22,273 nucleotides of DNA from Candidatus Hadarchaeales archaeon (GTDB lineage: Archaea > Hadarchaeota > Hadarchaeia > Hadarchaeales > Hadarchaeaceae). Positions 3,726-19,614 of the stretch are shown here, piece after piece (the first letter of the stretch is position 1; the number at the start of each line of letters is the position of its first letter). The position numbers and the translations under genes are program-made. The stretch lies in the NCBI GenBank assembly GCA_038851565.1, contig JAWCKV010000013.1, positions 1 to 22,273 on the forward strand, given 5' to 3'. The notes beneath the pieces were generated by a model. It saw only the letters and a program-made list of their open reading frames with translations. It searched no databases and was not told the origin of the DNA.

Positions 3726-5608
3726 TTTATCACCGGGAGGTCGAGCGGATTGATATAGTCCCCGAATTTCTCCTTTGCGGCGAGTAGACGCTTCCTCTGT
3801 CCTTCCAGCACCTCGTAGAGCCTTCTTGGAGCTTCTGGCACCTGCTCTGAAAAGAACTTTGTGACCCTCTTCAGCTTTGCGAGGTTCTCAGGAACCCTTA
3901 TCGTGAAGTTCCTCACGTATTCCTCTTCCGTGTAATCCACTTCGCGCACCTCTCTGAACAGCTTCCTTAGGTCCTCGTAAAGCGGTATCAGTCCGGTGGG
4001 GGACTCCGCAGCCTTAACGTCCCCGTGAACCCTCAGCTCCATCCACCTTATCCACACCCTCTTGTCCCTCCTGTCGTTCACAAATTTCCCCGTCTTCAGG
4101 TCCCTGAGGAAGTAGTTTACGCCGAATACCTTCGGCTTTTTCTCGAGCCTTTTTCCGAACTCTATGTAGTTCTCTATGTATTTCCCCAGCGGAATTGACA
4201 CGAAGTCCTGAATGCTCATTATGTTTATCTCATATTTTCCCTCGGCCTCTGTTAGCGCGAACGTCGTCTCCGTCTCAAGTGCCGCCCCGTACGCTATTAT
4301 CCCGTGATCCCAGTCGAATCCCTGCTGGACCGGAGCGTAGGCCCTCGCGTCCCTGCAGCCGTATATTATGCCCTCTATCTCTACCCCTTTCGGGTTGTCA
4401 AGCTCAGGGTCGCAGTTCCTCAGCGCCTTCAGGCTAACAGTGTACCTGGCGTTCTTGGAGGCGGGAAGGGTCTTCTCTCCGTTTTCATCTGTCTTTCCCT
4501 CCCACCATTTTCCTGTGTGGTTTATTCCTTCCTTGGGAAGCTCGCATCCCATGCCCAGCCAGTATGGCCTGCCGTCTTTAACGAGTACGTTTGAGAATAT
4601 CACCTCTCCCGGCGTGGTGAGAACCTCCCATATCAGTGGATCGTCCACAGGGTTGACGTCCTGGATTATCCCGAATATTCCGGCTTCTGCGTTCACCGCC
4701 CTGCACGCGCCGTCGATGATCCTCAAATACGCTATGTCGTCGGCCATTATTGAGTTTCCCGGGGCCATGGCAGTAGAGGTCTTGCCGCATGCGCTCGGAA
4801 AAGCTCCCGCGAGGTGCGTCCTTCTTCCACCGGGCCCTGGCACCGCCGTGATCATCATGTGCTCTGCAAGCCAGCCCTCTCTAGCTGCCTTCCTTATCGC
4901 CAGCCTGAGGGCAAGCTTCTTGAACCCTATGCTGTTTCCGGCGTACTGGGTGTTGACGCTGTAGACCGTGTTGGTGATATAGTCAATGTATATCCGCTTC
5001 TTACCCGGCTCGGCGCTGACCATGTTCTCATCCAGCGTGCCGGCCGAGTGAAGCACCTTGAACAGCTCTCCCTCCCTAAGGTGTCTGAACATCTCATATG
5101 CTCTCCTGTAGAGCAGGTCAACGGAATGTGCAACGTACCAGGAGTCAGTACACTCCATGCACGGTATCGTGAATGGAGAGTTGAGCGGACCTAGGGAGAG
5201 CAGGCGGACGATCATGGTTCTGCCCCTCATGGAATCCCTGAGAAGGCCCCTAATCTCCTCCAGCCCCTCCTCCCTCCCCATCTGTTTCAGCGCCGGGCTG
5301 AGATAATCTCCCTCGGGCACTAGATATTTTGTCACCTCGCGGTCCCGTCCTTGGTCCTTCGGGCCGTCGAAGTGGTATGTGTGACCCGGGACCGCCAGCG
5401 GCTTTTCCTCTCCGGTGAGCAGAGCCTGTTCTCTTATGTACCTCACGTCGTCCGGGGAATCCGTGCATATGAATACCGAATCCGGATTGCAGAGCTCCGC
5501 GGAATCCGCGATGAACTCGTGTACCTCTGGGTTCGGTATGGCGAGCAGCTTCTCGCGCTCTCGCCTCTCCATCCGCTCATAGAGCCTTTTCAGCGCGTTT
5601 TTCGGCAT
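3722..5608 (-). CDS. pckG: GTP-dependent phosphoenolpyruvate carboxykinase
   Basis: 628 aa. It carries the kinase-1a P-loop FPSACGKTSTAM diagnostic of GTP-PEPCK and is full length, comparable to archaeal and eukaryotic GTP-PEPCKs. A TATA-like element lies about 25-35 nt upstream on the minus strand. Confidence 0.93.
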   Translation of the reverse strand: MPKNALKRLYERMERREREKLLAIPNPEVHEFIADSAELCNPDSVFICTDSPDDVRYIREQALLTGEEKPLAVPGHTYHFDGPKDQGRDREVTKYLVPEGDYLSPALKQMGREEGLEEIRGLLRDSMRGRTMIVRLLSLGPLNSPFTIPCMECTDSWYVAHSVDLLYRRAYEMFRHLREGELFKVLHSAGTLDENMVSAEPGKKRIYIDYITNTVYSVNTQYAGNSIGFKKLALRLAIRKAAREGWLAEHMMITAVPGPGGRRTHLAGAFPSACGKTSTAMAPGNSIMADDIAYLRIIDGACRAVNAEAGIFGIIQDVNPVDDPLIWEVLTTPGEVIFSNVLVKDGRPYWLGMGCELPKEGINHTGKWWEGKTDENGEKTLPASKNARYTVSLKALRNCDPELDNPKGVEIEGIIYGCRDARAYAPVQQGFDWDHGIIAYGAALETETTFALTEAEGKYEINIMSIQDFVSIPLGKYIENYIEFGKRLEKKPKVFGVNYFLRDLKTGKFVNDRRDKRVWIRWMELRVHGDVKAAESPTGLIPLYEDLRKLFREVREVDYTEEEYVRNFTIRVPENLAKLKRVTKFFSEQVPEAPRRLYEVLEGQRKRLLAAKEKFGDYINPLDLPVIK

Positions 5609-5630
5609 GTTTCCCCTTTTCTCTAAAAAG

Positions 5631-5642
5631 TTAAATTTATAA
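5631..5642. promoter_or_regulatory. AT-rich TATA-box-like element (TTAAATTTATAA) in the divergent pckG/lrp intergenic region, possibly bidirectional
   Basis: This is the only strongly AT-rich stretch in the 67-nt gap between the two divergent start codons at 5608 and 5676. The purine-rich stretch ctctaaaaag directly upstream on the + strand is BRE-like. Confidence 0.45.
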
Positions 5643-5648
5643 GTGTTT

Positions 5649-5670
5649 CTGTTAACAAAATGTTAAACAG
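5649..5670. promoter_or_regulatory. imperfect inverted/direct repeat CTGTTAAC-aaaa-TGTTAAACAG between the TATA element and the lrp start; candidate Lrp-type operator
   Basis: The half-sites ctgttaac and gttaaacag are near reverse complements with one extra T. The repeat is AT-rich and ends 5 nt upstream of the lrp ATG. Confidence 0.35.
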
Positions 5671-5675
5671 GGAAA

Positions 5676-6149
5676 ATGGACGAGATAGAGGCAAAAATAG
5701 CGCTGCAGTTGCTGAGGGATGCGAGACAGCCCATAAAGGACATAGCTAGGAAGGTTGGGGTCACCAGACAGACGGCTGCCAAAAAGATGGCGAGCCTTCA
5801 GGAGTCCGGAATCATAAGGGGATTTGTTGCGAGGATGGATCGCGGAAGGCTGGGCCTGGGCACAATGGCATATATATTCTTGGAAGAGGATCCGAGCGCG
5901 AGGCTCAGGGAGGAGACAGAGAGGACGGTTAGGGGGTGGCCGGAGGTCAGCGCCTTTCACAGGATATTTGGCAGGCACAGCTCCATACTGGAGGTCCTGG
6001 TCAGAAACGACGCAGAGCTGAAGAGGCTCGTGAAGAGGCTTCACAGGCTGAAGGGGGTCAAGGGCACCGAGACGTTCATAGTTCACAGCACCGTAAAGGA
6101 TGATCCGGAGTCCCCAGTTGCCGATGCGATCATGCGGGAGTTCAGGTGA
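5676..6149 (+). CDS. lrp: Lrp/AsnC-family transcriptional regulator
   Basis: 157 aa. The N-terminal HTH (LDEIEAKIALQLLRDARQPIKDIARKVGVTRQTAAKKMASLQESGII) is followed by a RAM-type C-terminal domain. Confidence 0.9.
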   Translation: MDEIEAKIALQLLRDARQPIKDIARKVGVTRQTAAKKMASLQESGIIRGFVARMDRGRLGLGTMAYIFLEEDPSARLREETERTVRGWPEVSAFHRIFGRHSSILEVLVRNDAELKRLVKRLHRLKGVKGTETFIVHSTVKDDPESPVADAIMREFR

Positions 6150-6909
6150 GGTCCCCGCAGGCGCAGAATACCTCGTGCACTATGTCGTAGAGCTCACGCA
6201 TCCCCTCTCCCGTCTTTGCGCTGGTTTTGACCAGCCTGGCGGCGGGGAGAAGCCTCGGCAGGATCCCCGCGATGTCGATGGCAAGGTCCGCCATTGCCCC
6301 CTTTATCTCCTCCTCAGCTCGTTTTCTGAGGAAGCTCTCATCAGAGGCCATTCGGTCTATGTCGTTCACCGCGTCCCCTATGAGGTCCACTTTGTTCAGC
6401 ACGCTGATGGTCGGCACCCCGAGCCTGAGCCCTATGGAGAGCCCGAGCAGTCCCGTGAAGACGAACCCGGCCGCGCTCCTGCACACCTCGGCATCGGTCA
6501 GGAAGAGGGAAATGGTTGTCCCTTCGATCAATCTGGTCATCTCTGGCCCGCCGTGGAAGAGGAAGACCTCCATCTGCCCGGGCGTGTCCAGGAGCCTGAT
6601 GTCCCCGCCGACCCTGTTTATGCCTCTGGAGATCTCGGAGACATTTTGTTTCAGCAGTTCAGATGCCCGCACCATCGCTCCATTCGGTCCGAGGCCCTCC
6701 TCACGCATTATTCTGTCCACGGTGAAGTGCTCACGGATGTCGAAGTGGGGGGTAAAGGGCGTGAATTCGCATCCCGGATCGAGGTTAATAAACCTCACCT
6801 CGCGCCCCATGTTCTCCGCCATCCACCTTCCAAAACAAGCAGTGAGGGCGCTCTTGCCGGCTCCGGCCGTTCCAAGGAGGACTATGTTGAGGGGAGGCAT
6901 ACATTCCAT
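6142..6909 (-). CDS. GPN-loop GTPase (Npa3/XAB1/PAB0955 family)
   Basis: It has the P-loop NIVLLGTAGAGKSAL, the diagnostic EEGLGPNGAM GPN motif, LLDTPGQME and NKVDL. The computed ORF runs on to 7290, but a homologous N-terminus begins at Met 6909 (MECMPP) or 6900 (MPPLNIV). The longer ORF overlaps the neighbouring membrane-protein gene in another frame and is a GC-rich artefact. The gene converges on lrp with an 8-nt overlap. Confidence 0.85.
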   Translation of the reverse strand: MECMPPLNIVLLGTAGAGKSALTACFGRWMAENMGREVRFINLDPGCEFTPFTPHFDIREHFTVDRIMREEGLGPNGAMVRASELLKQNVSEISRGINRVGGDIRLLDTPGQMEVFLFHGGPEMTRLIEGTTISLFLTDAEVCRSAAGFVFTGLLGLSIGLRLGVPTISVLNKVDLIGDAVNDIDRMASDESFLRKRAEEEIKGAMADLAIDIAGILPRLLPAARLVKTSAKTGEGMRELYDIVHEVFCACGDLT

Positions 6910-6947: not shown

Positions 6948-7304
6948 TCACTTGCCGGGTTTCTTCTGCATGGCGAGTCCGGCGAGGATGGCGATTGCCC
7001 CCATCGCTGCGAAGAGGGCCACGAGGGCGGCCGCGATTGAGATCCTCCACCACAGGATGAGGAACAGGCCGGATGCAAACAGAACCGCGCTCCAGCCCGC
7101 GACGAGGGAGGCCCCCATCCCACGTTCTTTTGGGACGGAGCGCTTGAGCGCCGCCATGATGAGAAGCCAAGCGCCGTTCAAAATGAGCAGAGCCGGAATG
7201 ATCTCGCACAGGGATATGGCCCCAACATGGTAGGCGAACGCGGACAGCGCACAGGTCAGCAGAAAAACTCCGAGCGATATGGTCCCCCAAGCCCTTTTTG
7301 CCAT
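6948..7304 (-). CDS. small integral membrane protein, about 4 predicted TM helices, unknown function
   Basis: 118 aa with four hydrophobic stretches of about 20 aa separated by short charged loops (KRSVPKERG; QKKPGK at the C-terminus). A divergent TATA-like element lies at 7331-7345. Confidence 0.5.
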   Translation of the reverse strand: MAKRAWGTISLGVFLLTCALSAFAYHVGAISLCEIIPALLILNGAWLLIMAALKRSVPKERGMGASLVAGWSAVLFASGLFLILWWRISIAAALVALFAAMGAIAILAGLAMQKKPGK

Positions 7305-7330
7305 GTTCCCATCAGTCCATCTGCGAATCC

Positions 7331-7345
7331 TTTTTTAAATATCTG
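7331..7345. promoter_or_regulatory. TATA-like element TTTTTTAAATATCTG, about 30 nt upstream of the 7370 ATG; GGGAGGAG ribosome-binding site at 7358-7365
   Basis: The element is AT-rich within GC-rich DNA and is spaced correctly for an archaeal promoter. A strong SD-like GGAGG lies 5 nt before the ATG. Confidence 0.45.
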
Positions 7346-7369
7346 CCTAGCATAATACGGGAGGAGAAA

Positions 7370-7942
7370 ATGGTCCTGTTCGGGAGGATAAATCCAATCA
7401 ACGCAAAGGTCTCCGTGCTCCTGGACAAGCCCACTTTTCTTGAAGGGGAAAACATAACCGGGCGAGTCAACGTCGAGTCCGACGAGGCGGTCAAGGTCGA
7501 TGAGATAAGACTTGAGATAAGGGCGACCGAGACCTATCTCACGACAAGGATGGTTCACGATCGTTACGGAGCCCACCCGACGACGGTCCGGGAAACAAGG
7601 ACCGTTCACTCGGAGAATGTTCGGATTTCCCCCGGGTTTGACATGCCGAAGGGATTCAAGGACCAGTTCCCGTTCAGCGTTTCCATCCCCCCTCTCAGGC
7701 CGACGATGCCCAACGGCGTGATCGAAAGGAGGATAAAGGGCGTGGTCGCCGTGAAGGGGCGTCCGGACAAGACCCATGAGATCACCGTGAATGTCTCGTA
7801 TGCTCCACAGGTCGGTGCCGCTCCAGCGCCTGCGCAGGTGGTTGTGAAGGAGATAGTAAAGGTGCCTTGCAAGTACTGCGGCGCTCTCATCCCCGTTGAG
7901 TCCGAAAGGTGTCCGAATTGCGGTGCCAAGTTTTCAAGGTAA
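7370..7942 (+). CDS. SpoOM-like (arrestin-N-like fold) protein with C-terminal zinc ribbon
   Basis: 190 aa. The N-terminus MVLFGRINPINAKVSVLLDKPTFLEGENITGRVNVESDEAVKVDEIRLEI matches the Spo0M-family consensus (..GIGGAKVDTVLD...Y.PGE.V.G.V.I.GG...I..I.L.L). The C-terminus CKYCGALIPVESERCPNCGAKF is a CxxC-x10-CxxC zinc ribbon. The start is moved from the 7298 ORF start to 7370 because of the RBS/TATA and the homolog N-terminus. Confidence 0.7.
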   Translation: MVLFGRINPINAKVSVLLDKPTFLEGENITGRVNVESDEAVKVDEIRLEIRATETYLTTRMVHDRYGAHPTTVRETRTVHSENVRISPGFDMPKGFKDQFPFSVSIPPLRPTMPNGVIERRIKGVVAVKGRPDKTHEITVNVSYAPQVGAAPAPAQVVVKEIVKVPCKYCGALIPVESERCPNCGAKFSR

Positions 7943-7991
7943 GGTCTAAATAGTATGCCTAGATAATGGGACACGTAAGAGATGAGAACGG

Positions 7992-8522
7992 ATGAAATCC
8001 CCCCTGAAAAAAGTTGAGAGCGAAAAGGCTCTTCTGGAGAGGATCTCTCTCGCCATCCCCGGCTTCAGGGGTTACAAGCAGAAGGAGATGAGGAGGGAGG
8101 CCGACAGGCTCATAAGGGACCACATCTATCGGAAGCTCTCCAGCGCGAAGTCCGACCTCCGCGAGGTGCTGAGGCAGCTCGCCGCCAACAGGATCACCGG
8201 CATCATGGCAGAGCTCGACAGGGTGATCGCGAAGCTCGACAGGGTTGCCGAGCTCATACATCACGCTCCGCACGGGTATGCAGGGTTCTTCAATGCAGTG
8301 AAGGTAGATGAGGAGGATCTGGAAAGGATGATGGAGTTTGACCTGAAGATGGTGGATGGTACAAATGAGATCGAGGCCATGGCGAGGGGACTCAAGGAGG
8401 AGGCCGTGAAGAAGAACTTTGAGGCCATCGGTGACGGGATTGGCGAGCTGGAGAGGAAGGTGGACGGGCTGGAGGGTCTATTTAGCGGGAGGACTGAGGT
8501 CATAATGGGAGTTGAGCTCTGA
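7992..8522 (+). CDS. hypothetical coiled-coil protein with basic N-terminal half and acidic C-terminal half
   Basis: 176 aa with heptad-like charged/hydrophobic patterning (LLERISLAI, ITGIMAELDRVIAKLDRVAELI, IGELERKVDGLEGLF). Its TGATG stop/start overlaps the next gene, so the two are translationally coupled. Confidence 0.6.
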   Translation: MKSPLKKVESEKALLERISLAIPGFRGYKQKEMRREADRLIRDHIYRKLSSAKSDLREVLRQLAANRITGIMAELDRVIAKLDRVAELIHHAPHGYAGFFNAVKVDEEDLERMMEFDLKMVDGTNEIEAMARGLKEEAVKKNFEAIGDGIGELERKVDGLEGLFSGRTEVIMGVEL

Positions 8523-9520
8523 TGCCGCAGGTTATCGAGTGGACCGCCTATCAGCCCGGGAAGATAGTGTGGAAGTATCCCGATGAGAACATCACCTGGG
8601 GAGCCCAGCTGATCGTGAAGGAGATGGAGGCGGCGGTTTTCTTCAGGGATGGAAAGGCATACGATGTGTTCGGCCCGGGCAGGCACACGATCACGACCCA
8701 GAACCTGCCCCTCCTGACAAAGGTCCTCACGCGGCTGGCTGGGTATAAGGAAACCCCGTTCAAGGCGATGGTCATATTCGTCTCGACAAAGCAGTTCGAC
8801 GGGAAGTTCGGGCTGAGGGCCCAGACCACGGAGCTCGCGCCCCTGATGGCCCACGGCACGTTCTGGTTCAAGATAGAGAGTCCACAGCTCTTCGTTACGG
8901 AGGTCGTGGGCGGGCAGGGCGCGTATCACACGGTCGACGTGAACGAGTTTCTCCGGGGGTTTGTCAACGAGAAGGTGATCGACGAGCTGTCCCAGTACGA
9001 CCTTGCCACCGTATTCACCCGGCTGGATGAAACCTCGATGACGGTAAAGGCGCACCTCATCGATGCCTTCAGGAGGCTGGGCATCGAGCTGGTCGACATG
9101 AAGTTCGAGGGCATTGACACCGAGCCGCAGTACAGGGAGAGGCTCTTCTGGATAAAGTCCGGCGCTGCGGCTCCCACTGAGGTCCTGAGGATGGAGACGG
9201 TGAAGGAATCCGCCAAGGAGCTGGGAAAGTCGCCGGGGGCCGGGCTCGGAGCGGGGATGATGATAATACCTCCGATGTTTCAGCAGCCCGCGCAGCCGGC
9301 CGGAGCCCCGGCTGCAGCGCTGGTCATCTGTCCCGGCTGCGGCGCTCGAATTCCATCCAGCGCGAAGTTCTGCCCGGAGTGCGGGAGCCAGATCTCCCCA
9401 AGGGGAACGATGAAGTGCCCAAAATGCGGCGAGGAAATTCCTTCCACCTCAAAGTTCTGCCCTGCTTGCGGTAAAAGTCTAACCGGTTCAGGAGGGAGGA
9501 GGGTCACCAGGCAACGGTAG
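8522..9520 (+). CDS. SPFH/Band-7 superfamily protein of the Band_7_1/COG4260 (B. subtilis YdjI-like) type with C-terminal double zinc ribbon
   Basis: 332 aa. VIEWTAYQPGKIVWKYP...FFRDGKAYDVFGPGRHTITTQN...RAQTTE...AHGTFWFKIESP matches the YdjI/COG4260 N-terminal pattern (VVEWEEF...I.YKW; GTF.FKV). A Pro/Ala/Gly linker precedes CPGCGARIPSSAKFCPECGSQI...KCPKCGEEIPSTSKFCPACGKS, which is two CxxC-x9-CxxC ribbons. Confidence 0.8.
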   Translation: MPQVIEWTAYQPGKIVWKYPDENITWGAQLIVKEMEAAVFFRDGKAYDVFGPGRHTITTQNLPLLTKVLTRLAGYKETPFKAMVIFVSTKQFDGKFGLRAQTTELAPLMAHGTFWFKIESPQLFVTEVVGGQGAYHTVDVNEFLRGFVNEKVIDELSQYDLATVFTRLDETSMTVKAHLIDAFRRLGIELVDMKFEGIDTEPQYRERLFWIKSGAAAPTEVLRMETVKESAKELGKSPGAGLGAGMMIIPPMFQQPAQPAGAPAAALVICPGCGARIPSSAKFCPECGSQISPRGTMKCPKCGEEIPSTSKFCPACGKSLTGSGGRRVTRQR

Positions 9521-9561
9521 GAAGTGGTTTCCTGGTAACCGAAAACACAAGAAACAGGCTC

Positions 9562-10080
9562 ATGAGGGCCGGTTTGGCATTTTTCGCGATAGGCCTTGGC
9601 CTGCCGATCGTCACGATTTTGGTGGCCGTGATGGTCGGCTTCGTCGATGAGTCCATAATGCTCAACATCATGAACACGATGGAGAGAAATGCTGGTCTGC
9701 TTGTTCCAGCGTGCGGTGGGCTGGTCTTGTTGGGCGTTGTCCTGATGGCTGCGACCTGGAGCGTGCTTAAGCCGACGTTCCCGAGGGGGCTGGCGAAGAG
9801 GATAAAGGACTACGCTGTTCCCGCGCTGGAGTCGAAGGGCAGAGTTTCCCTTCAGGAGATTGCCGAAAATGTTGGGGCGGATGTGCCGGATGTGGAGTCC
9901 TGTCTGCGCGGGGGTTACGGTTACCAGGGCATGCTTTCCATGGGCTACTTTGATGAGAAAGTTAAACTGGAAGGAGGGTGGCTGGCAAAATCCGTCCCGC
10001 TTAAATGCCCATACTGCGGAATAGACCTGCCCGAGGGAGCTAAAAAGTGCCCCAACTGCGGAGCGGCGGTTAAGAAGTAG
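9562..10080 (+). CDS. two-TM membrane protein with winged-helix-like cytoplasmic segment and C-terminal zinc ribbon
   Basis: 172 aa. Two hydrophobic helices span residues 5-30 and 45-70. GRVSLQEIAENVGADVPDVESCLR is HTH-like. The C-terminus CPYCGIDLPEGAKKCPNCGAAV is a CxxC-x9-CxxC ribbon. Confidence 0.65.
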   Translation: MRAGLAFFAIGLGLPIVTILVAVMVGFVDESIMLNIMNTMERNAGLLVPACGGLVLLGVVLMAATWSVLKPTFPRGLAKRIKDYAVPALESKGRVSLQEIAENVGADVPDVESCLRGGYGYQGMLSMGYFDEKVKLEGGWLAKSVPLKCPYCGIDLPEGAKKCPNCGAAVKK

Positions 10081-10081
10081 A

Positions 10082-11716
10082 TTAACCGGCACGGGCAGGA
10101 ACAAGTTTCTTCGTCATGTAGGGCCCCTCTCTCCGGTAACCAGATCTTCTGTAATAGTTTCTCGTTCCAATGCCAGCGAGCACGGCCACCTTGCTGGCAT
10201 CCAGACATTCTCTCGAAATTCTCTCGGCCTCCTGCAGCAGGCGCTCTCCCCAGCCGCGGTGTTGCCATGCTTCATTTCCGGCTTCGTCGCCCACCTTCAC
10301 GAGCGGACCATATACGTGGAGTTCCCTCACAACTGTAGTTCTCTCGGATGAGATCTCCCGCCTGTGGGCCCCTTGGGAGGGATACCTGAGCCTGAGCAGC
10401 GCGATGATGATGTCGCGTTCGATGTCCTCGAATGACAGAAATATCTCCTCTCCTCCCGATGCCGAATACCTCCTCTCGACAAGTTCGATGTTTTCCTCCC
10501 CTGGCGTGACCCCCTCCCTGTACCGCACGTGCCCCACCTCTCTGCACCTGATGCACCTGCACCTTCTCCCGCTCTCCCTCAGCTTTTTCCGGACGATCTC
10601 CCTGAGGTCGCCGCGCCTGATTCCGCCCGCTATCAGATGTGCGGGTATGTCGCGCTGGATTCTCTGGATCCTGACCCAGGGCGGTGTCATCGCCTTTATC
10701 TCGGCTATCAGTTCAACAAGCTGTTCGAGCGGGTAGGGAGAGTACTCTCCCCTCCCCCACATCCCGTGAAGCTCTGTGTTTGGCATGACCAGGGTCGGAT
10801 ATATCTTGATGGCGTCTGGCCTGAACCTCTCATCCTCAAAGAGGGTCCTGAACATATAGAGGTCCCTTTGCCAGCTGGAGCCGGGGAGGTTCAGCATCAT
10901 GTGTGCCACAATCGCCAGTCCAGAGTCCCTTGCTATCCTCATGGCATCCGCCACATCGTTCACCGTGTGTCCCCTTCCGATCCGGACATAGATCTCGTCA
11001 TCGAGCGCCTGCACCCCCAGCTCCACCCGCGTGGCCCCGAGCCTCAGCATGAGGTCCACGTGGGGCTCCCTGCACCAGTCCGGGCGCGTCTCAAACGTTA
11101 TGTCGCTTATGTGTATGCGTGATCCCTCGGCAGTCCTCATTGCTTCCTCCAGGTCCCCGGAGCGAGAGCCCGTGATGGCGTTCAGGCAGCCTAGCATGAA
11201 CTCCTCCAGGTAGTCCTCGGGATATGCTGTTATCGTCCCTCCGAAGACCACCAGTTCGACCTTGTCCACCTCATGTCCGATCGCCCTGAGTTGCTCGATG
11301 CGTGACCTTACCTGGAGGTATGGATCGAAGTTGTGCTGCAGCGCACGCATGGCGGCCGGCTCCCTTCCCGTATAGCTCTGGGGCGTCCCCTGTGTGGGGC
11401 CGCCCGGGCAGTAGATGCATGGGCGCTCCTTGGGACACGGGTGCGGTCTGGGCATCACGGTTATGACGGAAACTCCTGATATGGAGCGGACGGGCTTCAG
11501 CCTGAGCAGTCCCGCAATTGCCTTCCTCTCCTCATGTCCGGCCGCAGCGAGGATCTCCGAGTTGCGGGGAACCCTGGTGAGGCTAAATTTTCTGCACGCC
11601 TCAATCTTCGCCCTGGCCAGCTCCGCGCGGTCCTTTATTTTACCTGCGGACATGGCCTTCAGTATCTCCTTGCACGCATCCCTGAGGTCCTCCATGGTAC
11701 CAATGATCTTTATCAC
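10082..11716 (-). CDS. elp3: Elp3-family tRNA uridine(34) modification enzyme (radical SAM plus GNAT acetyltransferase domains)
   Basis: 544 aa. It has the radical-SAM cysteine cluster PCPKERPCIYCPGGP...QSYTGREP, a C-terminal GNAT-like domain, and the typical archaeal Elp3 length. The gene converges on the previous gene with a 1-nt spacer. Confidence 0.9.
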   Translation of the reverse strand: MIKIIGTMEDLRDACKEILKAMSAGKIKDRAELARAKIEACRKFSLTRVPRNSEILAAAGHEERKAIAGLLRLKPVRSISGVSVITVMPRPHPCPKERPCIYCPGGPTQGTPQSYTGREPAAMRALQHNFDPYLQVRSRIEQLRAIGHEVDKVELVVFGGTITAYPEDYLEEFMLGCLNAITGSRSGDLEEAMRTAEGSRIHISDITFETRPDWCREPHVDLMLRLGATRVELGVQALDDEIYVRIGRGHTVNDVADAMRIARDSGLAIVAHMMLNLPGSSWQRDLYMFRTLFEDERFRPDAIKIYPTLVMPNTELHGMWGRGEYSPYPLEQLVELIAEIKAMTPPWVRIQRIQRDIPAHLIAGGIRRGDLREIVRKKLRESGRRCRCIRCREVGHVRYREGVTPGEENIELVERRYSASGGEEIFLSFEDIERDIIIALLRLRYPSQGAHRREISSERTTVVRELHVYGPLVKVGDEAGNEAWQHRGWGERLLQEAERISRECLDASKVAVLAGIGTRNYYRRSGYRREGPYMTKKLVPARAG

Positions 11717-14020: not shown

Positions 14021-14599
14021 TTGTGCCCTGAGGCTCGCGTGAGAGGAAAGAGAGGGCCCGTGGAGTTGGATGGGTATTTTACGCCCGGGAGGCTTGTTTT
14101 CGTCGCCCTGATTCCCGCAAGGAAATACCCTGAGTTCATGAACAGCATAGCGAGGTTTATCTCAAGTAGGTGGAATAAGATATGCATGGTTTCACTGACC
14201 AAGCCCTATTCAACTCTGGTTGACTCCTTCAAACGGTTGGGCATTGACCCGAAAAAGTTCTTCATCGTGGACGCAATTTCTCAGACTGCAGGAGGAGCAG
14301 AGAGGGCGGAGAACGTCGTCTTCGTCTCGAGTCCAGCTGCGATAACGGAGCTGGGCATCAAGGTAGGAGAGACTCTGAGGAGGGAGAAGCCGGACTTTCT
14401 CATTCTTGACTCCATATCTGTCATGCTGATATACGTGCCGGAGCAGGAGGTTCTGAAGTTCATACACATGCTTGTTTCCAGATTCCGCGCCAGCGGAATA
14501 TGCTCGCTTTTCACGGTTCTTCTGGAGGACACTGAAACGAGGGTGGTGAGGAACATATGCATGTTCGCAGATGCGGTTATAGACCTGGGGGAGGGGTGA
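14021..14599 (+). CDS. KaiC/RecA-superfamily paralog lacking the Walker A P-loop (probable pseudo-ATPase partner of the downstream KaiC-like protein)
   Basis: The C-terminal two-thirds align with the adjacent KaiC-like protein (FLILDSISVMLIYV vs FIVIDSISAIESAF; SLFTVLLEDTE vs SFLITETEDAP). At the P-loop position the sequence reads VFVALIPARKYPEF instead of GxxGxGKT. The start is uncertain: TTG 14021, GTG 14039/14060 or ATG 14138. Confidence 0.6.
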   Translation: MCPEARVRGKRGPVELDGYFTPGRLVFVALIPARKYPEFMNSIARFISSRWNKICMVSLTKPYSTLVDSFKRLGIDPKKFFIVDAISQTAGGAERAENVVFVSSPAAITELGIKVGETLRREKPDFLILDSISVMLIYVPEQEVLKFIHMLVSRFRASGICSLFTVLLEDTETRVVRNICMFADAVIDLGEG

Positions 14600-14600
14600 A

Positions 14601-14610
14601 TATATATTAT
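14601..14610. promoter_or_regulatory. TATA-like element TATATATTAT about 40 nt upstream of the KaiC-like gene; GGAGGG ribosome-binding site at 14633-14638
   Basis: This is an AT-rich island immediately after the upstream stop codon. An SD-like GGAGGG lies 8 nt before the ATG at 14647. Confidence 0.45.
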
Positions 14611-14646
14611 CTTAGTGAGGCAACTCTATCATGGAGGGCGGAATAG

Positions 14647-15468
14647 ATGCCCAGGGCCCCCAAGAAGGCCAAGAAGGTGTCTCAGGAACCTGAGTTCATA
14701 AAGATCGGAATACCCGGTTTCGACGATCTTTTTGCAAGGGGCATCCCGCGAGGAACAAACATCCTCATAGCGGGAGGTCCGGGGACTGGAAAGACGATAT
14801 TCTGTCTTCAGGCCCTCTACAACTCCGCGAGGGCCGGCCACGATTGCGTTTACATCACAATGGAGGAATCCGTGGAGAGATTGAGGGCACACATGGAGGA
14901 TTTTGGGTGGTCCACGAAGGTGGTGGAGCAGGGCAGAGGCAGGATTAAGATGAGGGTAGACGATGCAGGGCATATATTCGTGATGAAACATGATCCAATA
15001 CGCGTTGCGAGGTCCGTCGAGGCCATGTTGGCGAAGGTCACGGGGGACCTCTCGATAGACATAGAGGCGATTCCAGGGCTCGTCCCGAGGGGGTTGCGCC
15101 CGTACTTCATCGTTATAGATTCAATTTCTGCCATCGAGTCTGCCTTCGTCGGGAGACCAGAGAGCTACAGGATATACATAGAGCAGCTATTCAGGATGCT
15201 GGAGGAGCTCGGGAGCACATCCTTCCTCATAACGGAGACCGAGGACGCCCCGGTGAGGTTTTCTCGCTCAGGCGTTGAGGAGTTCCTCGCCGATGGGGTG
15301 ATAGTCCTGTATAACATGAAGGTCGGCGACACGAGGGTCAGGGCGATAGAGATTCTGAAGTTCAGGGGAGCCAAGCACGAGCGGAAACTGGTTCCCATGG
15401 AGATCACCGATAAGGGAATTGCGATATTCCCGAAGGAGAGGGTCTACGGAGTGGAGGGACTGAGATGA
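14647..15468 (+). CDS. single-domain KaiC-like RecA-superfamily ATPase (archaeal signal-transduction KaiC homolog)
   Basis: 273 aa. It has the motif GIPGFDDLFARGIPRGTNILIAGGPGTGKT (Walker A), Walker B FIVIDSIS, and the KaiC-type C-terminus ILKFRGAKHERKLVPMEITDKGIAIFP. Its ATGA overlaps the next gene. Confidence 0.9.
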   Translation: MPRAPKKAKKVSQEPEFIKIGIPGFDDLFARGIPRGTNILIAGGPGTGKTIFCLQALYNSARAGHDCVYITMEESVERLRAHMEDFGWSTKVVEQGRGRIKMRVDDAGHIFVMKHDPIRVARSVEAMLAKVTGDLSIDIEAIPGLVPRGLRPYFIVIDSISAIESAFVGRPESYRIYIEQLFRMLEELGSTSFLITETEDAPVRFSRSGVEEFLADGVIVLYNMKVGDTRVRAIEILKFRGAKHERKLVPMEITDKGIAIFPKERVYGVEGLR

Positions 15469-17831
15469 GGGAGTTCAAAGTTGGGCTGAGCACACGCAGG
15501 GCTTTCAAGATCGCTATCCTGCCGGGTCTCATCGCGGTTCTCCTCGGAGCATCGGCGGGATTTGCAGGCGCGGGAAACTGGTCGGTGGCATACGACACGC
15601 CCGAGGGGGGTGTGTACTGCCTTGCGGTATACAATGGGAAGCTTTTCGCGGGCACCGGTACGGATGGCAAAATATACGTTTACGATGGAAATAGTTGGGA
15701 GGTTAGCTACGATTCTTATCAGGAGACCATCATGGCGTTTGCGGTCTACGATGGCAAGCTGTATGCGGCCGGAGAGCCTAATGAATCCATATTTGTTTAC
15801 GACGGGGAGGAATGGACCGAGATGGAGGAGGTCCCCGGGGATCCGGTGTTATGCTTTGGGATATACGGGGGAAAACTTTACGCGGGCACGCAGAGCGGCG
15901 TTTTCGTTTATGAAGGCGGCACCTGGTCTCAGGTTCTGGAATACGGAATGGCGTCATTCGCGGTATACAATAACAAGCTCTACGCAGGGTCATGCGATTC
16001 AGGGGCGGTTTACTCTTTTGACGGGAACTATTGGGTCTTGGTCCACGATCTGATCCAACCCAACGCCATACTATCCTTGACGACGTACCGGGACAGGCTT
16101 TACATCGGCACAAGCGACAGCGGAGCAATATACGTCTCCAACGGGGAGACCTATGCCTTGAGCCATGATGTGCTGGAGCCGTACGTTTATTCGCTGGCGG
16201 TCTATTCTGACAAGCTTTACGCTGGGACAGGGCCCACCGGGTGCATATACAGCTATAACGGAACGGTGTGGGAGCTTAACTTCGACACGCCCGAATCCGA
16301 CATCTTCTCGCTTGCGGTTTACGGAACGAGGCTGTACGCCGGAACCTGGCAGGAGGGGAAGATCTACTGTCTCACGGATTTTGACTTCTCTCTGAGCGCT
16401 TCTTCGGACAACCTTGAGCTCGCACAGAATTCAGTTTCAACAACCGTTTCGGTCTCTCTGGTGTCTCAGGTGACGGAGACCGTAACGCTGAGCGGGGCGT
16501 GGGTGGGAAACGCGCCGACCGGGGTGAGTGCAATGTTCAGCATGACCTCAGGCACTCCTCCCTTCACAAGCACCCTTACTTTCACCAAGAGCGCCAGCGC
16601 GGGAGGTGGTAACTTCACCTACAGGGTCACGGCGTCAGGCGGCGGTCTGACACGAACAAAAGACATCTCCATAAACGTGATCGCGCCTCCATCTTCTCCA
16701 TCGCTGCTCTCCCCGGAGAACGGTGTCACGATAGACACCATCACCCCAACGTTTGACTGGTCCGATGTCTCAGGAACGGATTCCTACACCCTTGAGGTCG
16801 CCACGGACAACGCGTTCACCAACGTTATACTGACAAAGATCACGGCCGAATCAATCGCCACGCTTTCACAGAGCGAGGCGCTGTCATTCGGAACTACCTA
16901 TTACTGGAGAGTCAGGGGATCGAACTCAGCCGGACAGGGGGGCTGGTCGTCGGTGTGGAAATTCATCCCGCTGCTCACAGCTCCAAAGGTATCTGGTTTC
17001 ATGATGGCCGGAGGTGCAACTTTTACAAAGTCCACAACGATCCAGCTTACAATCACCGCCCAGAACGCATCACACATGTCTTTTTCCACCGACATGGCTA
17101 CGTGGACTGACTGGGAGCCATATCAAAGCAACATACCTTACACGCTCTCCGGTCCTGATGGTCTGAAGACTGTATATGTAAGGGTGAAGGACAGTGGGGG
17201 AAACGTGAGCCCGACCATGGCGGGCTCAATAACGCTGGACCAGACTTCTCCGCTGTCACAAAAGGACCTTGTTGGAGACCTCGGTCCTGAAGGATACAGG
17301 GGCTCCGTTGTCATAACTCTCTCAGCAATCGATGCGACCTCTGGTGTAGATAGGATAGTCTACAGAGTTGACGGAGGCGAGTGGAAATCGGCCAGCGCGC
17401 GCGAGGTATCATTTCCGATAACCTCCGGAGGCACACACACCGTGGAGTACTACTCCGTGGACATGGCCGGCAACGAGGAAACGGTCAGGTCATTTGAAGT
17501 AAAGGTACACGTCCCGGGAGCCATCCCAGAATACGTCTGGGTCATACCCGGTGTGGCGGCTGTGGCCGGAGTGGCGGTGTTTTATGCCACAAGAGGCATG
17601 AGGCTCAGGCGCAGGCTTGCCTCGATAAAAATCGAGAAGGAGGAACTCGCAAAAATGAAAAAGGAGGCGGAGACGAAGTTCTACAAGGAGGCCACGATGT
17701 CGCGCGAGACCTTTGACTCGCTCATGGCCGAGTACAGAAGGAAAATGGCTGAGCTGGAAAAGGAGGAAGGGCTGCTCCGCAGAAAAATAGGAAAAAAGGC
17801 AAAAAGCGCCGGGATGAGTGGTAAACGATGA
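15465..17831 (+). CDS. type-I membrane surface protein: signal peptide, 7-blade Kelch-like beta-propeller, four Ig-like/FN3-like domains, TM helix, cytoplasmic coiled-coil tail
   Basis: 788 aa. The N-terminal hydrophobic signal is AFKIAILPGLIAVLLGASAGFAGA. Seven repeats of about 45 aa follow the pattern (S/A)xAVYxxKLYAGTxxxGxIYVYDGxxW. The tandem beta-sandwich-like modules of about 95 aa include YYWRVRGSNSAGQGGWSSVWKF (FN3-like) and ITLSAIDATSGVDRIVYRVDGGEW...GTHTVEYYSVDMAGNEE (Big-like). The TM helix is VWVIPGVAAVAGVAVFYA, followed by the charged tail RLRRRLASIKIEKEELAKMKKEAE... Confidence 0.85.
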   Translation: MREFKVGLSTRRAFKIAILPGLIAVLLGASAGFAGAGNWSVAYDTPEGGVYCLAVYNGKLFAGTGTDGKIYVYDGNSWEVSYDSYQETIMAFAVYDGKLYAAGEPNESIFVYDGEEWTEMEEVPGDPVLCFGIYGGKLYAGTQSGVFVYEGGTWSQVLEYGMASFAVYNNKLYAGSCDSGAVYSFDGNYWVLVHDLIQPNAILSLTTYRDRLYIGTSDSGAIYVSNGETYALSHDVLEPYVYSLAVYSDKLYAGTGPTGCIYSYNGTVWELNFDTPESDIFSLAVYGTRLYAGTWQEGKIYCLTDFDFSLSASSDNLELAQNSVSTTVSVSLVSQVTETVTLSGAWVGNAPTGVSAMFSMTSGTPPFTSTLTFTKSASAGGGNFTYRVTASGGGLTRTKDISINVIAPPSSPSLLSPENGVTIDTITPTFDWSDVSGTDSYTLEVATDNAFTNVILTKITAESIATLSQSEALSFGTTYYWRVRGSNSAGQGGWSSVWKFIPLLTAPKVSGFMMAGGATFTKSTTIQLTITAQNASHMSFSTDMATWTDWEPYQSNIPYTLSGPDGLKTVYVRVKDSGGNVSPTMAGSITLDQTSPLSQKDLVGDLGPEGYRGSVVITLSAIDATSGVDRIVYRVDGGEWKSASAREVSFPITSGGTHTVEYYSVDMAGNEETVRSFEVKVHVPGAIPEYVWVIPGVAAVAGVAVFYATRGMRLRRRLASIKIEKEELAKMKKEAETKFYKEATMSRETFDSLMAEYRRKMAELEKEEGLLRRKIGKKAKSAGMSGKR
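15600..16390 (+). repeat. seven tandem protein-level repeats of about 45 aa (Kelch-type propeller blades) within the surface-protein gene
   Basis: Reading the translation gives the repeats CLAVYNGKLFAGTGTDGKIYVYDGNSW, FAVYDGKLYAAGEPNESIFVYDGEEW, FGIYGGKLYAGTQSGVFVYEGGTW, FAVYNNKLYAGSCDSGAVYSFDGNYW, LTTYRDRLYIGTSDSGAIYVSNGETY, LAVYSDKLYAGTGPTGCIYSYNGTVW and LAVYGTRLYAGTWQEGKIYCLTDF. DNA-level identity between units is only moderate. Confidence 0.75.
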
Positions 17832-18196
17832 AGCGGATCATGATAGTCGACGACGAGCCAGGCGTGAGGACATCGGTCAGGTTCCTTCTGGAGGCCAACG
17901 GCTTCAGCGTCGTTGAGGCCTCGGGAGGTCATCAGGCTCTGGAGATCCTGAAGAGGGAGAAGGTTGATCTTGTCCTGATAGACTTCCTCATGCCTGAAAT
18001 GAGCGGAAGGGAACTGGCCGAGAGGATAAGGGGGGATCCGAAGCTGAGGGACCTCAAGCTCGTCTTCCTCACAGTTGCCACTCTGGGCGAGGCCGGAAAG
18101 GAGGAATTGAAGAAGCTCAACATACTTGATTACATCACGAAACCTTACGACAACCGGGACTTAGTAAGCAGAATCACCAGGGTGCTGAGCAAGTAG
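17828..18196 (+). CDS. stand-alone CheY-like response-regulator receiver domain
   Basis: 122 aa with MIVDDEP (acidic pocket), LVLIDFLMP (phospho-acceptor Asp), FLT and TKP, the canonical receiver residues. Its ATGA overlaps the upstream gene. Confidence 0.9.
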   Translation: MKRIMIVDDEPGVRTSVRFLLEANGFSVVEASGGHQALEILKREKVDLVLIDFLMPEMSGRELAERIRGDPKLRDLKLVFLTVATLGEAGKEELKKLNILDYITKPYDNRDLVSRITRVLSK

Positions 18197-18231
18197 GACC
18201 GTCCCAAACCCATCGCGGTTCCGCACACTGC

Positions 18232-18264
18232 GACTATTTTTTATCTCAAGGAGATATACATAAA
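18232..18264 (+). promoter_or_regulatory. oligo-T tract (TTTTTT at 18237-18242; candidate archaeal terminator for the receiver gene and/or TATA-like box) followed by ATATACATAAAA upstream of the FIST gene
   Basis: This is the only AT-rich stretch in the 73-nt gap. The T6 run is followed by an AAGGAG SD-like motif and an ATG at 18270. Confidence 0.35.
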
Positions 18265-18269
18265 ACTGA

Positions 18270-19613: not shown

Positions 19614-19614
19614 C

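Follow-up and report, generated by a model that had tools for sequence, protein, structure and literature searches.

The locus discussed here lies within a 22,273-nucleotide stretch of DNA from a Hadarchaeales archaeon, hereafter the window, in which the ORF calls place four genes of the + strand, g1, g2, g3 and g4, between positions 7370 and 10080. As an earlier sequence-only reading had proposed, these genes are inserted between a GPN-loop GTPase gene (ATP_bind_1, 1e-44 in the domain search) and the gene of Elp3. The four genes of that reading were borne out, but a fifth one, gTM (6948-7304, - strand), located between the GTPase gene and g1 and coding for a protein of 118 aa with four predicted TM helices, had been overlooked. 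The g1 gene (7370-7942, +) codes for 190 aa, consisting of an arrestin/Spo0M-like lobe, a Pro/Ala linker and a single C-terminal zinc ribbon; its start at ATG 7370 is backed by an alignment with five orthologues, and the upstream TTG 7298 corresponds to an over-extension. The g2 gene (7992-8522, +) codes for a protein of 176 aa predicted to form an all-helical bundle, and is joined to g3 by a TGATG stop/start overlap (8520-8524, +), already pointed out in the initial reading and seen directly in the sequence. The 332-aa product of g3 (8522-9520, +) belongs to the Band_7_1 (YdjI/SamI) type of SPFH proteins; it is soluble, and its low-complexity linker leads to a double zinc ribbon at the C-terminus. 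Finally, g4 (9562-10080, +; 172 aa; start at TTG 9574 in the NCBI annotation) combines two TM helices with a probable winged-helix region (residues ~85-135), followed by a single zinc ribbon at the C-terminus.

The 65 bp that separate the divergent gTM and g1 genes (7305-7369, unstranded) probably correspond to a bidirectional archaeal promoter serving both of them. The spacer contains a central A/T-rich, TATA-like element, TTTTTTAAATAT, at 7331-7342, about 33 nt from the start codons of both genes, together with a GGAGGAG motif at 7360-7366. A central TTTTTAAA / CTTTATA element is kept in the gTM-g1 spacers, 55-75 bp long, of seven related loci (L007, L008, L009, L094, L095, L096 and L099).

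Four zinc ribbons are distributed among three of the proteins, namely CKYC-x10-CPNC in g1 (DNA 7868-7921, +), CPGC-x10-CPEC (9329-9382, +) and CPKC-x10-CPAC (9416-9469, +) in g3, and CPYC-x10-CPNC in g4 (10006-10059, +). The three ribbon-ended proteins had been recognized beforehand, but with a CxxC-x9/10-CxxC spacing and with no mention of the second ribbon of g3, whereas all four ribbons are x10-spaced. Of the ribbon models, Zn_Ribbon_1 (PF13240) fits each of the three proteins best, with 58.6 bits for g3 (4e-16, in two stretches, beside a DZR match at 1e-12), 29.9 bits for g4 (4.5e-7) and 21.5 bits for g1, the latter value falling just below the cut-off of 25. A derivation of the ribbons from different families, which would have told against the initial reading, is not borne out, all of them fitting a single family (PF13240/DZR) and sharing the pattern CxxCGxx[IL]Pxxxx.CPxCG. 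At non-cysteine positions, their mutual identity reaches 32-47%, versus a mean of 15-23% to background ribbons, in a comparison of short segments with a background of seven ribbons. Because a search for CxxC-x8-12-CxxC motifs in the six frames of the whole 22 kb window retrieves the ribbons of g1, g3 and g4 and no others, they are not a chance feature of this DNA.

The SPFH protein g3 matches Band_7_1 (PF13421) over residues 16-200 with 2.1e-30 and 106.4 bits (cut-off 24), well above the score of the generic Band_7 family (PF01145; 1.1e-18, 68.4 bits). A Kyte-Doolittle scan finds no TM segment, and the SPFH domain is followed by a Gly/Ala/Pro/Met-rich stretch (residues 236-267) and then by the two ribbons, a double ribbon that also occurs in 86 of 95 g3 homologues. 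BLASTP aligns residues 1-321 of g3 with residues 8-323 of YdjI from Bacillus subtilis (sequence taken from locus L090), at 4e-18 and 23% identity. With these properties g3, soluble and better described by PF13421 than by Band_7, differs from an ordinary stomatin and is assigned to the true YdjI/SamI-type Band_7_1 SPFH proteins, as the sequence-only reading had anticipated.

The partner protein g2 displays the charge asymmetry noticed at the outset, a basic N-terminus and an acidic C-terminus, with net charges of +8 and -10 for the two halves of its 176 residues. Two motifs, IPG[FY]xGYKxKExRRExD and HAxxGY[AS]GFF, are invariant within its family. The AF2 model (pLDDT 88, pTM 0.83) predicts helices at residues 4-21, 31-65, 72-90, 96-102, 107-139 and 143-165, organized in what is predicted to be a generic compact helical bundle; this fold yields no clue to function. 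No Pfam family matches g2 at E<=0.1, and a comparison of its profile with YdjH gave a probability of 0.15%.

The all-helical nature of g2, its basic N-terminus and its acidic C-terminus would suit a membrane-repair system of the PspA/ESCRT-III kind, in which g2 would act as a PspA-type coiled-coil effector polymerizing on damaged membrane and g3 as its recruiter, in the manner of YdjI for PspA. The gene order lends some credit to the idea, g2 being directly upstream of the YdjI-like gene in the same way as pspA leads the ydjGHI operon of B. subtilis, where YdjI is required for PspA foci (PMC8581546). Moreover, one g2 family member carries a fused DUF4178, which has been reported in polyamine operons linked to PspA (PMC11237479). 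The direct comparisons point the other way. Alignment with B. subtilis PspA by hhalign gives a probability of 0.1%; PspA, Vipp1 and ESCRT-III are all absent from the matches of a g2 profile search against the PDB; and g2 shows neither PspA_IM30/Snf7 similarity nor the ESCRT-III fold, i.e., a long alpha1-alpha2 hairpin with packing helices. No PspA_IM30 or Snf7 domain occurs in any of the window ORFs scanned, phmmer with B. subtilis PspA matches none of 89 g2 loci within ~5-6 kb, and PspA is equally absent from the Pfam-annotated neighbourhoods of related loci. The PspA-type candidacy of g2, put forward in the sequence-only reading, is not supported, nor is the idea of a PspA system encoded here, and membrane repair of this kind appears a quite improbable function for the module. 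Of the PspA/YdjI-like envelope-stress candidate formerly proposed, the YdjI-type nature of g3 subsists, but g2 is not PspA-like and the related loci are devoid of a PspA gene.

The arrestin-like protein g1, named 'sporulation protein' at NCBI, matches Arrestin_N (PF00339; 2.5e-7, 31.2 bits, cut-off 24.9), Spo0M (PF07070; 2.7e-7, 30.9 bits, cut-off 23) and Arrestin_C (3.2e-6, 28.0 bits, cut-off 27.7) with its N-terminal 140 residues. The Spo0M-like arrestin-fold protein with a ribbon described beforehand is supported by these above-threshold Pfam matches and by the single ribbon, but g1 contains only one beta-sandwich lobe of ~130 residues (~11-142), the rest consisting of linker and ribbon, and covers positions 12-134 of the 213-position Spo0M profile (123/213). 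Neither a two-lobed arrestin architecture nor a full-length Spo0M match was found with Pfam. It differs from the known Spo0M/arrestin-fold proteins by this single lobe, by the added C-terminal ribbon and by an obligatory place next to gTM and the SPFH pair, its orthologues (53-83% identity) being always neighbours of gTM and g2-g3. An alignment of g1 by hhalign with YdjG-like proteins is limited to the ribbon. Among the 89 g2 loci, g1 is absent from those of Bathyarchaeia and Chloroflexi, and it is regarded as an accessory specific to Hadarchaeota. In two loci (L091, L096) g1 is separated from g2 by unrelated genes of the opposite strand, so its affiliation may be with gTM and not with the g2-g3 pair.

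Conservation across genomes makes it possible to distinguish a core from its accessories. Wherever a locus contains both the g2 gene and a Band_7_1 SPFH gene, the two are neighbours (95 of 95 loci, in Hadarchaeota, Bathyarchaeia, Methanocella, Thermoproteota and Chloroflexi); 87 of these loci show a spacing between -1 and +7 nt, a tight arrangement which, like the TGATG overlap of the window, indicates that both genes are mostly translationally coupled. The g2-g3 pair is the invariant core, conserved everywhere, to which gTM is added in archaea. The gTM protein, in which a hydrophobicity scan identifies four hydrophobic segments, matches no family in Pfam, NCBIfam or PADLOC; its homologues, 112-125 aa in length, share conserved GxF, GxWxxxLA and GxxWxL motifs and a P.KYE loop. 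Two different gene arrangements are seen: all Hadarchaeota loci have gTM divergent from g1, and in ~47 loci of Bathyarchaeia it lies directly downstream of the SPFH gene and shares its strand. In archaea gTM travels with the g2-g3 pair, and it counts as the fifth member of the module, a conserved one. The slot upstream of g2 is filled by lineage-specific ribbon-bearing accessories, g1 in Hadarchaeota and a YdjG homologue in Bathyarchaeia (57 loci; match to YDJG_BACSU, whose identity as YdjG was confirmed, at 1e-12 by BLASTP). Accordingly, the four-gene module first described holds in so far as at least 15 Hadarchaeota loci keep g1, g2 and g3 together, with g4 present in about half of those long enough to include it, but these four genes do not form an evolutionary unit, the core being g2 and g3, with g1 restricted to a lineage and g4 variable.

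The same data bear on the trivial explanation that four independent small genes came together by chance, their ribbons being simply the commonest terminal motif of archaeal proteins. Ribbons of the PF13240 type are indeed very common, g1 and g4 are restricted by lineage, and g4 lacks any detectable homologue in a large word-indexed search. A chance assembly is nevertheless hard to reconcile with the association of g2 and g3 in 95/95 archaeal and bacterial loci with overlapping or nearly touching stop and start codons, with a gTM linkage that survives rearrangement, and with the confinement of every CxxC-x10-CxxC motif of the 22-kb window to g1, g3 and g4. This explanation, very improbable as a whole, is already largely refuted for g2, g3 and gTM.

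The g4 protein possesses the two TM segments and the zinc ribbon attributed to it in the sequence-only reading, the former as two hydrophobic segments in the hydrophobicity scan. Its middle region gives sub-threshold matches only, to PCI (5e-4, for Chloroflexi members), FeoC (0.01), MarR (0.01 in Pfam, 0.05 in the PDB) and Z-alpha (0.4). All of them point to winged-helix families, and residues ~85-135 probably form a winged-helix domain. A word-indexed search of a 5.8-billion-protein database retrieved nothing except g4 itself. In local searches, L007, L091 (two copies), L095, L096 and L098 proved to have orthologues downstream of g3, so that, with the window, g4-type proteins stand beside the pair in six Hadarchaeota loci, about half of those extending far enough; they are missing from others (L004, L094). 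Proteins of the same architecture are found directly upstream of g2 in Chloroflexi (L003, L005, L006) and, with one small gene between, in the bacterial metagenome contig L089, i.e., in four of the six bacterial loci read in detail. On this distribution, g4 is considered a variable, optional accessory that recurs in bacteria. In two other Chloroflexi loci (L087, L088), devoid of a g4-type protein, the SPFH protein itself bears a C-terminal HTH_17 domain.

This distribution suggests a possible alternative, a membrane-tethered signalling or transcription switch, whose DNA- or RNA-binding output would be the winged helix and ribbon of g4 or, in some Chloroflexi, the HTH_17 domain fused to the SPFH protein. 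The SPFH/g2 complex would hold the output module at the membrane and free or activate it upon envelope stress, following the logic of PspA-PspF or SamI-SamGH. The recurrence of g4-type proteins next to the pair in both archaea and bacteria, the HTH_17 of the SPFH protein in L087 and L088, where they are absent, and the ability of zinc ribbons to bind nucleic acids (PMC3581485) are all consistent with such a switch, as is the finding that a membrane sensor is held back by SamI, whose loss has transcriptome-wide effects (bioRxiv 10.64898/2026.02.06.704340). However, the winged-helix assignment of g4 relies on sub-threshold matches, winged-helix domains are often protein-protein modules (PCI, ESCRT-II), the Bathyarchaeia, which represent the largest group, have no g4-type or HTH component, and neither a target operator nor a regulated gene is evident. 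A switch of this kind is, on balance, rather unlikely.

An anti-virus or other conflict system, with an SPFH protein and ribbon-bearing sensors as its parts, deserves consideration in view of the variable accessory genes, of the unrelated genes interposed between g1 and g2 in some relatives, and of the many PHROG families matched, through the ribbon only. Yet none of the five proteins matches any PADLOC family at E<=0.01, a set of 2.9 million viral contigs yields no g2 relatives, and the Pfam search reveals no predicted nuclease, NTPase or toxin-like effector in the module. The housekeeping synteny is conserved across divergent Hadarchaeota, the PEPCK-to-Hel308 order being kept in a relative whose g2 is just 53% identical to that of the window. 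The module is chromosomal and cellular, neither a mobile nor a defence element, and a conflict role is the least probable of the explanations considered.

Among known systems, the pspA-ydjGHI operon of B. subtilis (samGHI; L090) is one of the closest. In both loci the Band_7_1 SPFH protein is soluble and ends, after a low-complexity linker, in a C-terminal zinc ribbon, both cluster the SPFH gene with ribbon-bearing and membrane-integral partner genes, and the Bathyarchaeia version of the module contains a true YdjG homologue. The Bacillus YdjI is likewise soluble, has a low-complexity region as well as a zinc finger, and requires YdjG and YdjH to reach the membrane (PMC8581546), while SamI restrains SamGH and plays a developmental role that is independent of PspA (bioRxiv 10.64898/2026.02.06.704340). 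In contrast, the window operon lacks pspA, ydjG and ydjH, three of the four Bacillus genes: neither the window nor the Hadarchaeota loci contain a YdjG-type protein (zinc ribbons plus NTF2-like domain), and no TPM_phosphatase match indicative of the TPM-domain protein YdjH occurs in the window. An arrestin-like ribbon protein stands in place of YdjG, the membrane components are a 4-TM protein and a 2TM-winged-helix-ribbon protein, the SPFH ribbon is double instead of single, and g2, an obligatory partner in the module, is missing from the Bacillus locus. The cluster can be regarded, by analogy, as a PspA-less archaeal cousin of the YdjGHI/SamGHI membrane-stress system.

The SPFH-NfeD operons (stomatin PH1511/PH1510, QmcA-YbbJ, FloT-YuaF; PMC2636767, PMC4208085) similarly consist of a two-gene cassette of an SPFH protein and a dedicated small partner, plus a membrane component, and their pairing is kept across prokaryotes. 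Canonical SPFH proteins, however, possess an N-terminal TM segment of their own and end in a long coiled coil, whereas g3 is soluble, and the partner NfeD, a membrane protein, adopts an OB fold whereas g2 is a soluble helical bundle with no NfeD match at E<=0.1. Compared by description, the methanogen 'Meth_adaptin' ESCRT-type loci (PMC10936438) resemble the module in placing an archaeal SPFH protein with zinc ribbons beside ribbon-bearing, adaptor-like beta-sandwich proteins, the adaptor being an adaptin appendage there and the arrestin-like lobe of g1 here; they are centred on Vps4 and ESCRT-III, whereas neither an AAA ATPase nor an ESCRT-III gene was seen in the window.

Taken together, the module probably represents a chromosomal YdjI/SamI-type SPFH scaffold working at the cytoplasmic face of the membrane, its most likely function being that of a membrane-docked SPFH scaffold or stress-sensing complex. 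In such a scaffold, g3 would oligomerize like other SPFH proteins and, because it has no TM segment, would be recruited by integral partners, gTM and/or g4 bringing it to the membrane as YdjG and YdjH do for YdjI in B. subtilis. Docking or assembly would fall to the short cytoplasmic ribbons of g3, g1 and g4, whose C-terminal position is taken in bacterial relatives by SHOCT or HTH modules; no domain is fused to SHOCT more often than PF13421 (PMC3581485), and the C-terminal module is thus shown to be interchangeable. Made in a fixed ratio with g3, g2 would bind the SPFH oligomer through a single conserved aromatic/basic apical patch, as its regulatory or effector subunit, and the complex would monitor or stabilize the membrane, or a client membrane protein, with no PspA encoded at the locus. 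The contact between g2 and g3, the docking by ribbons and the anchoring by gTM and g4 are inferred from the order of the genes and by analogy with Bacillus. A nucleic-acid or signalling output, which the scaffold model leaves unexplained, is hinted at by the winged-helix module of g4 and the HTH_17 fusions in L087 and L088.

The g2 protein extends far beyond this locus. Among named families it matches NCBIfam NF047596, the LIMLP_15305 family of Leptospira, which has a length of 175 aa and aligns nearly end to end with g2 (6e-14), and which also matches the Chloroflexi homologue (1e-7); the g2 score of 52 bits lies far under the family cut-off of 210, so that g2 is a distant relative rather than a member. 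The sole paper found for LIMLP_15305 just lists the locus tag (PMC7567364), and no published description of the g2 family was found. At E<=1e-3 this family comprises 2141 clusters (50% identity level); members were found in at least 581 species genomes. In this respect, the module reveals a widespread and apparently undescribed family of partner proteins, represented here by g2.

In the window, a contig of a Candidatus Hadarchaeales archaeon MAG, the interval between the gene for a GPN-loop GTPase (6142-6909, - strand; ATP_bind_1, 1e-44) and the Elp3 gene (10082-11716, - strand) contains a run of four + strand genes, designated g1 (7370-7942, its start at 7370 fixed by aligning five orthologues), g2 (7992-8522), g3 (8522-9520) and g4 (9562-10080). 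The name given to g2 in the source record carries the locus tag QW567_02360, and the g2 and g3 genes overlap by a TGATG readable in the sequence at 8520-8524. The sequence-only reading described a four-gene module with zinc ribbons, and all of the elements it had observed are present at 7370-10080, as judged from Pfam, charge, TM and six-frame motif scans. The four + strand genes stand, with two corrections: the ribbon of g3 is double, and a fifth gene, gTM (6948-7304, - strand), a 118-aa ORF with four TM helices, joins the module. All four ribbons are of the CxxC-x10-CxxC type, with the pattern CxxCGxx[IL]P....CPxCG, and the six-frame scan of the 22-kb window detected no other CxxC-x8-12-CxxC motif. 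Around 10078-10084, the stop of g4 (ending at 10080) and that of the convergent elp3 gene (10082) are located one base apart, and in L004, a related locus devoid of g4, the SPFH gene and elp3 are separated by 20 nt, so that g4 either is wedged in or was lost, almost without spacer and without any visible terminator. Further along the window, a + strand cluster at 14021-21123, which looks like a signaling module, comprises a KaiC-like/DUF7504 protein (14021-14599), a full KaiC-like ATPase (14647-15468), a 788-aa protein with a faint Ig-like match only (15465-17831), a FIST-domain protein (18270-19613) and a HAMP-HisKA histidine kinase (19615-21123), all encoded on the + strand.

The g3 protein belongs to the Band_7_1 family (PF13421, 2e-30), is devoid of any hydrophobic segment, and ends in a low-complexity linker followed by the two ribbons. 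It aligns over its full length, ribbon included, with YdjI from Bacillus subtilis (4e-18), the reference being the gene of the pspA-ydjGHI locus (L090), which consists of pspA, ydjG, ydjH with a TPM domain, and ydjI with Band_7_1 plus a ribbon. On account of this alignment g3 is a YdjI/SamI-type SPFH protein, as the sequence-only reading had claimed. Sequence comparison of g3 with solved structures gave ribbon matches only, and no SPFH. Depending on the locus, the C-terminal module of the SPFH protein consists of a double ribbon (86 of the 95 loci), of HTH_17 in the Chloroflexi loci L087 (5569-6621) and L088 (5622-6653), or of a SHOCT/GvpG-like helix in the Chloroflexi locus L003 (6622-7662), a variation that agrees with the known fusion pattern of SHOCT, whose most frequent fusion partner is PF13421 (PMC3581485).

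To collect related loci, homologues of g2 were taken from a protein database and eight neighborhoods were read with their precomputed Pfam matches; the g2-family alignment was scanned against one genome per species, with matches in at least 581 species from which the best 80 loci were retained, and the g1 alignment was scanned against metagenomes. Full-length g1 orthologues, 53-83% identical, occur in 12 of the 38 metagenome loci returned, and two further loci contain divergent (37-38%) or partial relatives. The ORFs from all collected loci were searched with the proteins of the window. Wherever both genes occur (95 of 95 loci), g2 and the Band_7_1 gene are direct neighbors with a shared orientation, with a gap of -1 to +7 nt in 87 of them, in a distribution that spans Hadarchaeota, Bathyarchaeia (the majority), Methanocella, Thermoproteota and Chloroflexi. 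What accompanies these SPFH proteins throughout is a helical protein of the g2 type, about 175 aa long and so far undescribed. Four contigs filed as bacterial MAGs (L015, L023, L053 and L086; Krumholzibacteriaceae, Nitrospirales, Bacteroidales and "bacterium") display a typical Bathyarchaeia operon, with a g2 36-48% identical to that of the window, as in Bathyarchaeia, and are probably binning contaminants rather than bacterial carriers.

The g2 protein, whose N-terminal half has a net charge of +8 and whose C-terminal half one of -10, matched no family in Pfam. At 50% identity, an exhaustive HMMER search gathered 2141 clusters with E<=1e-3, of which 1308 reach E<=1e-10, almost all members being 170-180 aa long. 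Some 340-435 aa are reached by P0234, P0248, P0274, P0302 and P0344, of which one is a fusion with DUF4178, a domain known from PspA-linked polyamine operons, and the others carry long disordered Pro/Gly/Ser/Thr-rich tails. The sole library model touching the family is NCBIfam NF047596 (the Leptospira LIMLP_15305 family), with a match of 6e-14 that lies far below the cut-off. No published function was found in the literature for the LIMLP_15305 family, nor anything functional on LIMLP_15305, COG4260 or Band_7_1, nor a paper describing the g2 family. The invariant residues of the family, E16, P23, G24, G27, Y28, R34, R35, D38, R42, A92, G95, Y96, G98, F99, L110, D117 and R167, map to the loops after helices 1 and 3 and to the starts of helices 2 and 4. 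The invariant loops bear the motifs PG[FY]xGY and GY[AS]GFF. An AF2 model built from the single sequence (pLDDT 77) was superseded by an alignment-based model. Because the invariant loops share one end of the up-down bundle, we infer that g2 would expose a single conserved aromatic/basic patch at its apex. The ligand of this putative patch seems more likely to be a protein, the SPFH domain, than a lipid, since the patch is invariant across ether-lipid and ester-lipid organisms.

With respect to the Bacillus system, an identity of g2 with PspA was rejected (hhalign probability of 0.1%, no Pfam PspA_IM30 or Snf7), as was an identity with YdjH (hhalign, 0.15%), and the g2 profile yielded weak coiled-coil noise only against PDB sequences. 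A gene for PspA is absent from all 89 g2 loci. According to these alignments and PspA-less loci, the module shares YdjI with the Bacillus operon, and in Bathyarchaeia YdjG too, but not PspA or YdjH; in addition, it possesses an obligatory component, g2, which Bacillus lacks. That g2 acts as a PspA-like effector is contradicted on homology and seems improbable even when an analogous function is included. The YdjI/SamI protein of B. subtilis is the only soluble Band_7_1 SPFH system studied, and has been interpreted via its PspA link. YdjI is a soluble protein that the membrane proteins YdjG and YdjH recruit, and that forms foci and affects membrane fluidity (PMC8581546); SamI, predicted to form a higher-order oligomer, restrains SamGH signaling independently of PspA (bioRxiv 10.64898/2026.02.06.704340).

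The gTM gene is divergent from g1 in every Hadarchaeota locus, and in approximately 47 Bathyarchaeia loci it directly follows the SPFH gene in the same orientation. Its alignment reveals conserved polar and aromatic positions, beyond plain hydrophobicity, and a conserved P.KYE loop. The persistence of the linkage through rearrangement is strong evidence that gTM shares a function with the module, and the idea that the genes are mere chance neighbors, refuted for g2, g3 and gTM, has very little left in its favor. The g1 protein, labeled "sporulation protein" at NCBI, scores above the Pfam cut-offs for Arrestin_N, Spo0M and Arrestin_C, and consists of a single lobe of about 130 residues followed by one ribbon; it is confined to Hadarchaeota, always beside gTM, from which it is separated by a spacer of 55-75 bp with a conserved central TTTTTAAA-like element. 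Unrelated opposite-strand genes interrupt the g1-g2 junction in two loci: in L091, the closest metagenomic relative (g1 83% identical to that of the window), a 445-aa Pro/Trp-rich anchored protein with C2H2-like motifs (4588-5925, - strand), and in L096 a 309-aa protein with several zinc ribbons (1928-2857, - strand). As the inserted genes differ, the junction tolerates insertions, and as they split g1 from g2 on the opposite strand, the transcription units are probably gTM<->g1 and g2-g3(-g4). In one Hadarchaeota metagenomic contig (L100), a second g1-like paralogue without zinc ribbon (2218-2721) separates gTM from the g1 that bears the ribbon.

The position upstream of g2 is taken, in 57 Bathyarchaeia loci, by a 250-aa protein with an N-terminal ribbon, which matches B. 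subtilis YdjG at 1e-12 (query YDJG_BACSU, "PspA localization factor YdjG", by exact look-up). A homology of g1 with this protein was rejected, and the two genes are analogous in position, not homologous, because only their ribbons align. In 50 Bathyarchaeia loci, e.g., L010 (3762-5171), the YdjG-like gene is immediately preceded by a conserved gene for a 470-aa FAD-dependent protein (FAD-depend_C, GIDA, HI0933-like).

The g4 protein consists of two TM segments and one ribbon. Orthologues are found downstream of g3 in L007, L091, L095, L096 and L098, and are absent from L004 and L094; in L091 the SPFH gene is followed by two tandem copies (7479-8093 and 8137-8568). In the Chloroflexi loci L003, L005 and L006, the gene directly before g2 encodes a protein of this architecture (2 TM, winged-helix-like region, C-terminal ribbon) and is itself preceded by one for a DUF2207 membrane protein; in the bacterial metagenome contig L089, such a gene lies upstream of g2 with one small gene between. 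By BLASTP, g4 and the L003 protein match at 1e-4. A search of a 5.8-billion-protein database returned g4 itself alone, and the orthologues were recovered solely by searching the collected loci locally with phmmer and HMMs. Both g4 and the HTH_17 fusions of the SPFH protein would suit a membrane-tethered winged-helix/HTH signaling switch, but Bathyarchaeia are without any such part, which leaves this explanation unlikely. A defense system is scarcely credible: PADLOC gives no match, viral relatives are lacking, and the housekeeping synteny is stable. A defense or viral origin was rejected, as neither PADLOC nor PHROGs nor a scan of viral contigs spoke for one.

The gene content, the g2-g3 coupling, the linkage of gTM, the family assignments and the homology to YdjI and YdjG being established, the overall picture of an SPFH scaffold (g3) docked at the membrane, with g2 as regulatory or effector subunit and the ribbons as docking elements, is considered somewhat better than an even proposition; greater confidence is attached to a YdjI-type SPFH module with g2 as its dedicated partner, and less to the roles of the individual parts. 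The g3 protein would oligomerize below the membrane, docked by gTM and, where present, by g4, and the ribbons of g3, g1 and g4, and of YdjG in Bathyarchaeia, may serve as docking or assembly elements. The g2 protein would bind the SPFH oligomer at a fixed stoichiometry, as a regulatory or effector subunit, and g1 could be an adaptor of the arrestin type, directed at a client or at gTM. A bolder proposal, which we regard as rather doubtful, is that g2 and Band_7_1 form an ancient self-sufficient two-protein membrane machine common to Archaea and Bacteria, in which g2 would contribute in trans what is missing from soluble SPFH proteins (either an SPFH cage's helical wall or cap, or a non-ESCRT-III membrane-binding effector), PspA being a later Firmicutes-specific addition; in Hadarchaeota, a common zinc-ribbon docking code would couple this machine to two further proteins, an adaptor with an arrestin fold and a membrane protein with a winged helix. 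Such a coupling would be the prokaryotic equivalent of the way in which arrestin-type adaptors and SPFH/flotillin proteins cooperate in eukaryotes to sort membrane proteins.

The classification of prokaryotic SPFH proteins includes soluble subfamilies for which no members are documented and no operon partner is named (PMC2636767). In the Psp surveys, band-7+ZnR is mentioned for the pspA-ydjGHI setting of Firmicutes alone (PMC11237479; bioRxiv 10.1101/2021.02.15.431232), and an ESCRT survey noted SPFH+CC+ZnR proteins only in methanogen adaptin loci (PMC10936438). The g2 family, its 4-TM partner, and the arrestin-ribbon and 2TM-winged-helix-ribbon accessories are described in none of the papers searched. 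Since a complete lack of Psp proteins is reported for over half of the genomes of archaea (bioRxiv 10.1101/2021.02.15.431232), the module is a candidate archaeal envelope-surveillance system. The result is mostly the definition, well supported by comparative genomics, of an SPFH partner that is widespread but unstudied; the mechanism is still inferred. The locus and its approximately 100 relatives extend over two domains of life, PspA being absent from all loci examined, and define a small set of interchangeable candidate docking parts, namely the zinc ribbons, the SHOCT/HTH tails, the 4-TM protein, the 2TM-winged-helix-ribbon protein, YdjG and the arrestin-like lobe. These loci give a testable handle on how SPFH proteins devoid of TM segments reach the membrane, and on what they do without PspA.
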